Assembly (NCBI RefSeq): GCF_054482525.1
Contig: NZ_CM137006.1
DNA length: 64,000 nt
Direction: 5' to 3' (one strand)
Part shown: positions 62,315 to 64,000 of the stretch, piece by piece
Layout of the letters: every line of letters starts with the position of its first letter
How positions within the stretch are numbered: position 1 is the stretch's first letter
Translations under genes and position numbers: made by a program
The notes under the pieces: generated by a model
Seen by the model: the letters and a program-made list of their open reading frames with translations, nothing else
Database searches by the model: none
Told to the model about the DNA's origin: nothing

Positions 62315-64000
62315 TTAGTCCTCGTTTACAACCTTTTGCTGGGCGGCTTTTTTGGCCTGAACGCGGGCAATAGCCGCGGCAACTGCCGCTTTGCGCGGAT
62401 CAATCTGTTCTTCTGGTTCCGCATTAGCCTGTTGTTGCTGTTCCAGCTTGCGCGCTTTGGCACGGGCAATAGCAGCTTCGACGGCAGCTTTGCGCGGATC
62501 AACCTGTTGTTCTGGCTCCGCATTAGCCTGCTGCTGTTCCAGCTTGCGTGCTTTGGCACGGGCAATAGCGGCTTCGACGGCGGCTTTGCGCGGATCGACC
62601 GTTTCGTCTGGTTCCGCATTAGCCTGTTGCTGTTCCAGCTTGCGTGCTTTGGCTCGGGCAATAGCGGCTTCGACGGCGGCTTTGCGCGGGTCAACCTGTT
62701 CTTCTGGTTCCGCATTAGCCTGTTGCTGTTCCAGCTTGCGCGCTTTGGCGCGGGCAATAGCGGCTTCGACGGCGGCTTTGCGCGGATCGACCTGTTGTTC
62801 TGGCTCGGCATTAGCCTGTTGCTGTTCCAGCTTGCGTGCTTTGGCACGGGCGATAGCTGCTTCAACGGCAGTTTTACGTGGATCAGCAACGGTTGCTGCG
62901 TCGTTAGTTTGCTGCAGTTCTGCCTGTTTCGCTCTGGCTTGCGCTTTACGGGCTTCCCGTGCTGCAATAATTGCACTGTTATCCGGGCGTTCACCCGCTT
63001 TAATCACAATAGGCTGTGTAGCCTGGGCCTGTTTCTCTTTCACCCGCGCCAGAGCGGCAGCAATCGCATCTTTATCTTTGGCTGCAGGTTGAACGGCTGC
63101 GCTCTTATGTCGTTCAAGGCGAGCCGCTTTTTCGCGCTCCAGACGAGCCTGGCGCGCTTCGAAACGCGCTTTGGCTTCTGCGGCGCGCTTTTCTTCCTGA
63201 CGAATAGCCGCAATTTCAGCTTTTTCCTGACGGAAATATTGCACCAGGGGAATATTGCTCGGGCAAACCCACGCGCAAGCCCCACATTCAATGCAGTCGG
63301 CAATGTTATGCGTGGTAGCTTTATCGTGTTGCTGACCTTTGCTGAACCAGTACAACTGTTGCGGCAAAAGATCCGCAGGGCAGGCGTCAGCACAGGCGCT
63401 ACACCGGATGCAGCTTTGTTCTTCCTGTGGTTCGCCAAGCTCATTGGCAGAGGGAGCCAACAGACAGTTGGTAATCTTTACGACCGGGACATCCAGCCAT
63501 GGCAAGGTAAAGCCCATTAGCGGGCCGCCCATAATCACCATTTGATCGGCAGAGGGGCAGAATCCGGCGTCATTCAATAAATGACGCACTGGCGTCCCCA
63601 GCCGTGCCCAGACGTTGCCCGGGCGAGCGATTGCTTCGCCAGTCAGGGTTACGACACGCTCGGTAATCGGCTCGCCATCAATAACGGCACGTTTCACTGC
63701 ATAAGCAGTGCCGACGTTTTGCATTAATACGCCGATATCGGATGAACGCCCGCCATGTGGAACCTGCTTCCCGGTCAGAATGTAGGTTAATTGTTTAGCA
63801 CCGCCAGAAGGATATTTGGTTGGAATCACCCGCAGAGAAATATCGTGAGAGTCCGCCAGCACCGCGCGCAGCATGGAAATCGCCTGCGGTTTGTTATCTT
63901 CAATGCCGATAAGAATTTCGCGTGGCTGCAGAATATGCGCAAGAATGCGAATACCCTCTACGACCTGAGCCGCGCAATCCTGCATCAAACGGTCATCGGC
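62315..64000 (-). CDS. rsxC: Rnf/Rsx electron transport complex subunit C, C-terminal part only (N-terminus lies beyond the window end); carries a tandem 32-aa repeat tail
   Basis: 4Fe-4S motifs ([24 protein letters not shown]); the ORF remains open to the window edge, so the true start is outside. Confidence 0.9.
62318..62900. repeat. Tandem in-frame 96-bp repeats (about 5 full units plus a degenerate one) encoding the C-terminal tail of RsxC
   Basis: The motif GGGCAATAGC recurs at 62365, 62464, 62560, 62656, 62752 and (as GGGCGATAGC) 62848; protein unit [32 protein letters not shown]. Confidence 0.85.

Follow-up and report, generated by a model that had tools for sequence, protein, structure and literature searches.

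The DNA analysed here is a stretch of 64,000 nucleotides (contig NZ_CM137006.1 of NCBI RefSeq assembly GCF_054482525.1), referred to below in its full length as the window. Its right end carries the Escherichia coli gene rsxC on the minus strand, which runs past the window edge. Within the Rsx/Rnf complex, which keeps SoxR reduced, RsxC is the subunit on the NAD(P)H side. The last 567 coding bases of rsxC (62884-62318, minus strand) form a tandem repeat array of five units of 32 or 33 codons and a shorter terminal unit. This array is the known coding minisatellite ms11, a typing locus of MLVA (analysis of variable-number tandem repeats at multiple loci), and its polymorphism is not new. The overall explanation that we consider highly probable is that ms11 is a coding minisatellite in the 3' end of rsxC, which changes slowly by whole units and whose units encode helices kept by selection. 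The only part that appears to be undescribed is a conserved, charge-patterned helix module in RnfC tails, the core motif being present in the searchable literature only as a typing marker.

Across rsxC-rsxD the window matches the E. coli PCN033 chromosome (NZ_CP006632.1) at 100%, and in that chromosome the rsxC coding sequence measures 2226 bp and the annotated gene order is rsxA-rsxB-rsxC-rsxD-rsxG-rsxE-nth; the open reading frames (ORFs) of the window agree with this order. RsxC carries the Pfam domains expected of an RnfC/RsxC protein (RnfC_N PF13375, Complex1_51K PF01512, SLBB PF10531 and Fer4 families), and scores 869 bits against the NCBIfam RsxC equivalog NF003454 (cut-off 345). Both 12-residue segments expected of a 2x[4Fe-4S] ferredoxin domain were found in the RsxC translation of the window. 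The genes and repeat units are the following, unit boundaries being set at each DPRK in the minus-strand translation:

62315 to 64000, minus strand: 3' part of rsxC (last 561 of 741 codons and the stop codon, 62315-62317), with continuous translation to the window edge
62789 to 62884, minus strand: unit 1 (aa 553-584), 96 bp, with the distinctive 5' codons CCA CGT AAA ACT
62693 to 62788, minus strand: unit 2 (aa 585-616), 96 bp
62597 to 62692, minus strand: unit 3 (aa 617-648), 96 bp, with the linker variant EPDETV
62501 to 62596, minus strand: unit 4 (aa 649-680), 96 bp
62402 to 62500, minus strand: unit 5 (aa 681-713), 99 bp, with one additional Gln codon
62318 to 62401, minus strand: terminal unit 6 (aa 714-741), 84 bp
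61256 to 62314, minus strand: rsxD, whose ATG follows immediately after the rsxC TAA stop

A single array was detected here by Tandem Repeats Finder (62364-62885, period 96, 5.4 copies, 89% matches, no indels, score 793), and an independent repeat search gave copy spacings of 99, 96, 96 and 96. Self-identity at offset 96 was 0.86, against 0.27 +/- 0.02 (maximum 0.36) in 1000 shuffles. An initial annotation, made from the letters alone, had described tandem 96-bp coding repeats with about five units and one degenerate unit; the period and the shuffle test confirm this, and the 32-residue consensus peptide that it gave is exactly that of unit 4. Of the span that it proposed (62318-62900), the end at 62318 is correct and the start has to be moved, the array of this minus-strand gene beginning at 62884. 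Its description of the units as near-identical does not hold for the DNA: unit pairs in the window differ at 4-15 of 96 bases (84-96% identity), mostly at synonymous positions, and the longest exact identity between units is 38-42 bp.

Identification of the array as ms11 was based on the published primers, whose sites in the window are:

63016 to 63035, minus strand: ms11 forward MLVA primer GAAACAGGCCCAGGCTACAC, 0 mismatches, one match
62267 to 62286, plus strand: ms11 reverse MLVA primer CTGGCGCTGGTTATGGGTAT, within rsxD, 0 mismatches, one match

Each of the two 20-mers matches the window once, where none would be expected by chance, and the predicted amplicon is 769 bp. The primers flank the array, the unit is 96 bp long and the copy number varies among isolates, so that nothing differs at the DNA level between ms11 and the array of the window. 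Primers and 96-bp repeat size are published in PMC8215070 and PMC11773471; the former reports six alleles with a Simpson index of 0.68 and the latter lists the locus as 'ms11 (rsxC)'. The scheme, used for Shigella/E. coli MLVA, is credited to Gorge et al. 2008 (J Clin Microbiol 46:1026) as cited in PMC8215070. In these two MLVA papers ms11 serves as a size marker, and the encoded peptide, its conservation and its structure are not discussed there.

Copy number was estimated from a search of 5,426 complete E. coli genomes in which the query consisted only of the two unique flanks, the span of each hit being converted into array length. The distribution was taken from two systematic (spread) samples of 59 genomes each, ranked on different queries. 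Alleles with 3, 4, 5, 6 and 7 full units were found in 2, 15, 32, 4 and 6 genomes of the first sample and in 2, 14, 30, 7 and 6 genomes of the second (about 3%, 25%, 52%, 9% and 10% over the two), with a pooled Simpson diversity of about 0.64. One further genome (NT1F31) carries 2 full units. The tail had been suspected to be length-polymorphic, with a count of units across E. coli genomes as the proposed check, and this is borne out by the range of 2-7 full units, to which a fixed terminal unit is added. The number of genomes in which both flanks could be joined was 5,404 whether the joining limit was 900 or 1,500 bp, and arrays much beyond about 8 units therefore seem to be absent in E. coli. 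The lengths of the allele products, taken from annotated proteins in complete genomes, are:

2 full units: RsxC of 644 aa (NT1F31)
3 full units: RsxC of 676 aa (LR-71-1)
4 full units: RsxC of 708/709 aa (WAT, T309.Ta3)
5 full units: RsxC of 740/741 aa (K-12, PCN033)
6 full units: RsxC of 772 aa (O157:H7)
7 full units: RsxC of 806 aa (AR_0104)

Pairwise comparison of alleles gives an indication of how the number of units changes. Between K-12 (5 units) and LR-71-1 (3 units) there is no substitution and one gap of 192 bp, while K-12 and NT1F31 (2 units) are separated by 1 substitution and gaps of 96 and 192 bp; O157:H7 and O55:H7 strain DEC5E differ by a clean 96-bp loss of the sixth unit and 1 substitution (Q-to-H, unit 3). 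Unit 3 of LR-71-1 is a hybrid, its 5' part corresponding to K-12 unit 3 and its 3' end to unit 5, and the terminal unit of NT1F31 is a hybrid of an internal and a terminal unit. These comparisons show new alleles being formed when misaligned repeats lose whole units in register, with hybrid units left on an otherwise identical haplotype. The event itself would be an unequal homologous recombination or a replication slippage across the stretches of 38-42 bp in which units agree perfectly. The codon type of unit 1 sits at position 1 in all nine E. coli alleles examined, because of which the array can be read as having anchored ends, with a mosaic interior. Among strains with equal numbers of units the array is 3.0-6.4% divergent, against 0.8-2.4% for the flanking rsxC and rsxD sequences, which is consistent with old synonymous variants having been shuffled among units.

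At the protein level, each E. coli unit consists of a basic Ala-rich segment of 18 residues with a net charge of +4 and then of an acidic Gln/Glu/Pro linker of 14 residues (net -3). The 18-residue segment, hereafter the core, is found in RnfC tails in the form DP(R/K)KAA(V/I)(E/A)AAIAR(A/V)(K/Q)A(R/K)K, or, written more narrowly, DP(R/K)KAAV(E/A)AAIARAKA(R/K)K. It occurs in the tails of Klebsiella-like bacteria, Salmonella, Yersinia, Serratia, Dickeya, Pectobacterium and Brenneria, and likewise of Photorhabdus, Proteus, Haemophilus, Bisgaardia, Aeromonas, Pseudoalteromonas and other gammaproteobacterial RnfC proteins; it is also present in RsxC of Erwinia amylovora (PMC10587187). A search of 1.84 billion representative proteins with a profile of the core gave 242 matches at E<=1e-3, with up to 13 copies per protein, and among the 38 longest matches Fer4 was found in 29 and Complex1_51K (NuoF-like) in 27. 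The core thus appears to be confined to gammaproteobacterial RnfC/RsxC tails. Its period is regular and lineage-specific, from 27 to more than 60 residues. The linkers (9-76 residues) are unrelated in sequence between lineages and almost always acidic: of 239 distinct linkers, 96% have a net negative charge (mean -3.7), whereas cores average +4.5.

An RnfC protein of 532 aa from a metagenome-assembled genome has a single copy of the core, at its C-terminus. It suggests that the internal units are lineage-specific amplifications and that the terminal unit probably represents the original lone copy; Klebsiella-like, Salmonella-like and other RnfC tails end in motifs nearly identical to it. A comparable array is known from Erwinia amylovora, in which a 40-aa repeat starting at residue 553 of RsxC, present in 0-5 copies among strains, has been proposed as a variable-number tandem-repeat (VNTR) marker (PMC10587187). 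Both arrays begin at aa 553, share the 18-residue core and vary in copy number; the Erwinia unit is, however, of 40 aa instead of 32/33 aa, and its linker is Ala/Pro-rich (AAQAAPAAADKAAPVQQPAAEQ) and not Gln/Glu-rich as in E. coli. Since unit length and linker differ, the two expansions are probably independent.

For the structure of the tail, AlphaFold2 was run on the tail alone and then with an alignment of 33 full-length RnfC homologues. In the first run each unit gave one helix of about 24 residues, with about 8 non-helical residues between helices (helix predicted local distance difference test score, pLDDT, of 70-85; predicted template modelling score of 0.23). Over both runs the unit helices have a pLDDT of about 75-83. 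In the second, pLDDT was above 90 in the core of the protein up to residue 480 and below 50 in the linkers, and discrete helices were predicted at residues 489-507, 522-545, 554-575, 586-607, 618-638, 650-670, 683-702 and 715-740. A single-alpha-helix or coiled-coil rod was not obtained: AlphaFold2, which gives a prediction only, breaks the tail at each Pro-containing linker. We infer from these models that each unit would fold as an isolated helix of about 22 residues on a flexible hinge, the tail being a string of identical helices. The tail had been annotated at first as helical or disordered, and in the models both terms apply, with predicted helices on low-confidence linkers. Three conserved elements precede the array:

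63092 to 63247, minus strand: long C-terminal helix of the RnfC core (aa 432-483), AlphaFold2 pLDDT above 90
63032 to 63076, minus strand: degenerate copy of the core motif (aa 489-503), with the pattern D-x-x-A-[IV]-x-A-A-[IL]-A-R-[AV]-K, within the AlphaFold2 helix 489-507
62927 to 62986, minus strand: conserved tail motif B (aa 519-538), containing I525, just upstream of the array, within the AlphaFold2 helix 522-545 (pLDDT about 81-85)

A consensus built from 33 RnfC proteins retains the degenerate copy as ...AALARVK/R..., and motif B is kept in the tails of Klebsiella-like bacteria, Yersinia, Dickeya, Serratia and Proteus. Judged from Pfam and NCBIfam matches, the folded part of RnfC extends to about residue 450-480; the NCBIfam RsxC model goes no further than aa 570, and solved RnfC structures align to RsxC only up to residue 498. 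In Azotobacter vinelandii RnfC (PDB 8AHX, 8ahx_C) the C-terminal helix aligns to aa 432-483 of RsxC, and it is from this helix that the repeat tail extends; the A. vinelandii protein, of 496 aa, stops shortly beyond the helix and has no detectable match to the repeat tail. The same helix is reported to contact RnfB and RnfH and to have no function assigned (PMC12174285). The best match when solved structures were searched for the motif, between aa ~511-538 of RsxC (62927-63010) and the N-terminal helix of the RNA polymerase omega subunit (9gdo_E: NRFDLVLVAARRARQ; E=0.04, 17.8 bits), is probably due to chance and was not retained.

A comparable case within E. coli typing is the tolA MLVA locus CVN004/CNV004, which is likewise a coding VNTR. 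The tolA repeat lies in the Ala/Lys/Glu-rich helical region of the envelope-associated protein TolA; its unit is much shorter, and it belongs to one continuous long helix spanning the periplasm, not to discrete helices on Pro-containing hinges. We know of no sequence relationship between the TolA repeat and that of the RsxC tail.

Selection on the units was estimated by the Nei-Gojobori method over all pairs among 42 full units from nine E. coli alleles. These units comprise 38 distinct DNA types and encode almost identical peptides. Over all pairs, the proportions of synonymous (pS) and nonsynonymous (pN) differences were 0.27 and 0.023 (pN/pS 0.085), with a pN/pS of 0.045 in the first 18 codons (core) and of 0.15 in the last 14 (linker). 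The unit peptide is under strong purifying selection. It had been proposed that a number of units identical in all strains, combined with synonymous divergence between units, would speak for a fixed length rather than a dynamic repeat; the synonymous divergence is indeed present, but the number is not fixed.

Sequence, and not only composition, being conserved, the helix is probably a binding module. Each unit could be one copy of a redundant, multivalent module for a putative partner, which would explain how copy number can drift without loss of function; the number of units would then affect reach or avidity rather than the presence of function. A more specific proposal, which we put forward only tentatively, is that the core is a specific docking helix, carried in 1-13 copies on acidic flexible linkers, that recruits a partner to the Rnf/Rsx complex. 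Candidate partners may be an acidic redox protein (flavodoxin, ferredoxin), SoxR, RsxB, an RnfH-like protein, or further Rsx complexes bound by pairing between helices.

Several observations weigh against the interpretation of the array as a minisatellite of selected helix units. The confidence of AlphaFold2 for the isolated helices is only moderate. In Pfam searches of RsxC, even at E<=1, nothing was found beyond aa ~450, which leaves the tail without a Pfam family, and the search of solved structures gave none that contains the core motif. Conservation figures for the core are partly circular, as many of the sequences were collected with the motif pattern or profile. Recombination and slippage are indistinguishable from the sequence as causes of unit change. 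Finally, natural alleles range from 2 to 7 units in E. coli and from 0 to 5 in Erwinia, for which no phenotype is reported; this indicates that the number is not critical, and a functionless spacer would give the same picture.

That the tail is such a spacer, a tolerated low-complexity segment expanding and contracting neutrally, is the main rival explanation and a possible one, though we would not favour it. Conservation would in that case reflect composition (a soluble, non-toxic, helix-forming sequence) and homogenisation of the units. Besides the variable copy number, the freedom of the linkers to vary in length and sequence and the absence of the tail from RnfC proteins of solved structure agree with it. 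The low pN/pS of the core is, however, found despite 27-30% synonymous divergence, and for this reason the units would be old and individually constrained rather than recently homogenised. The same residues at V, I, R and K positions persist in several orders, unlike the linkers, in which the negative charge is nevertheless constrained. A last element comes from rsxC-I525F, which arose in an evolved K-12 strain where loss of rsxC with a mutation of arcA is beneficial and which its authors describe as 'null or neutral' (PMC4759930). Its position was checked and falls inside motif B, in the conserved tail helix next to the array; it hints at a role of the tail in Rsx activity but does not prove one.

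Membrane-binding amphipathic helices, which would hold RsxC on the inner membrane, could be considered in view of the membrane-bound nature of the Rsx complex and of the basic core, whose charge (+4) would suit binding to anionic lipid surfaces. For the repeated helices the hydrophobic moment is nevertheless low (0.15-0.20, against 0.41-0.61 for the helices of MinD, FtsA and RNase E in the same computation), and a membrane anchor is on this account unlikely. The helices are moreover Ala-rich with few large hydrophobic residues, and, as an acidic linker accompanies every basic core, the tail is nearly neutral overall.

It is still less probable that the array is a contingency locus, i.e. a fast-mutating repeat that tunes or switches Rsx/SoxR activity. 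Length alleles do vary among strains, and an rsxC 'non-frameshift deletion' is listed among the mutations of olaquindox-resistant E. coli ATCC 25922 evolved in the laboratory (PMC7696260); the paper gives no coordinates, and the deletion may be a loss of units or a difference between assemblies. The nine intact alleles examined are, on the other hand, all in frame, with units of 96 or 99 bp, whereas a contingency locus would be expected to shift the frame or to turn expression on and off. Among 60 genomes whose 2-kb flanks are identical to those of O157:H7 (O157:H7/O55:H7), 59 carry six units, DEC5E being the exception, and all K-12 laboratory derivatives within the samples have five. Perfect identity between units does not exceed 38-42 bp. 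The early suggestion that the repeat is prone to slipped-strand or recombinational change thus agrees with the whole-unit gaps and hybrid junctions, but the rate is slow. The rarity of unit change makes alleles stable within clones, and hence useful for typing.

The last alternative, that the array is an assembly artefact of this record or a DNA- or RNA-level element rather than coding sequence, draws on the fact that repeats of this type do break draft assemblies and on the long ORFs left open on the opposite strand, and is for practical purposes refuted by the presence of the array in thousands of complete genomes with lengths differing by multiples of 96 bp, by the same size classes being detected in MLVA based on the polymerase chain reaction, by variation at third positions of the rsxC frame, and by the lack of any Rfam match (E<=1) or inverted repeat in the array. 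The antisense ORFs in question (62210-63520, plus strand, 436 aa; 62391-63092, plus strand, 233 aa) have repetitive Cys/Ser/Leu-rich translations. Given these translations and the third-position variation of the rsxC frame, they were rejected as genes and considered as shadows of the Ala-rich rsxC frame.

The array is a source of assembly collapse, as had been anticipated, and this is visible in partial RsxC fragments, broken Proteus contigs and Erwinia drafts. The search for tail homologues scored the best 8000 candidates by shared words; these are mostly fragments, and show the diversity of tails and not full-length allele counts. Many of the relatives are 'partial' proteins on short contigs (clusters of 184 members for E. 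coli and 172 for Salmonella), and most matches to the core profile are fragments of 45-250 aa. A search of genome contigs for related loci confirmed at least 9, to be taken as examples and not as a census. In Proteus myxofaciens ATCC 19692 one contig of 333 bp consists of RnfC tail repeat units only and a second stops inside the array, and for Erwinia rsxC was not recoverable from most draft genomes according to the authors of PMC10587187. Several database proteins (e.g. P0027 and P0058) result from translating the array out of frame. P0085 (HATPase_c), P0090 (Gly_transporter), P0058 ('DUF1192') and P0226 were rejected as independent motif families, as they look frameshifted or chimeric and contain RnfC-tail sequence. 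Such records could mislead surveys of domain architecture.

A 'complete' record is also concerned: in E. coli XL1-Blue (NZ_CP081007.1) rsxC is cut inside unit 2 (3050-3130 of the compared locus) and annotated as a 682-aa RsxC fusion. The junction has about 70 bp resembling what we take to be an IS5 terminus (reverse complement GGAAGGTGCGAACAAG...), after which come probable yhcE sequence and then yhcF; the fusion could be a real rearrangement or a misassembly. In practice, the length of rsxC varies by multiples of 32 codons and short-read assemblies often break or collapse at the array, and rsxC 'in-frame deletions' from evolution experiments may be mere losses of units.

Other features of the surroundings concern rsxD. 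A Shine-Dalgarno-like GAGGA sequence for rsxD lies inside the final rsxC codons AAC GAG GAC (N-E-D; window 62312-62330, minus strand). Because of this overlap, the conserved ...VNED C-terminus of RsxC may be under constraint at the RNA level in addition. A run of seven G at 62041-62047 (C7 on the coding strand of rsxD, ...SIPPLAP..., near its 5' part) recurs in the flanks of O157:H7 and AR_0104 that served as queries. Elsewhere in the window a tandem repeat occurs only at 24867-25024 (minus strand, period 81, 2 copies), where two tRNA-Val(GAC) genes lie side by side.

Through its control of SoxR, Rsx also controls the efflux-mediated drug tolerance that depends on SoxR. Whether the tail recruits a partner therefore bears on how the Rsx-SoxR circuit is wired. 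A helix conserved in sequence, patterned in charge and repeated in the tail of a subunit of a widespread respiratory/redox complex is in this respect a modest but real biological question.

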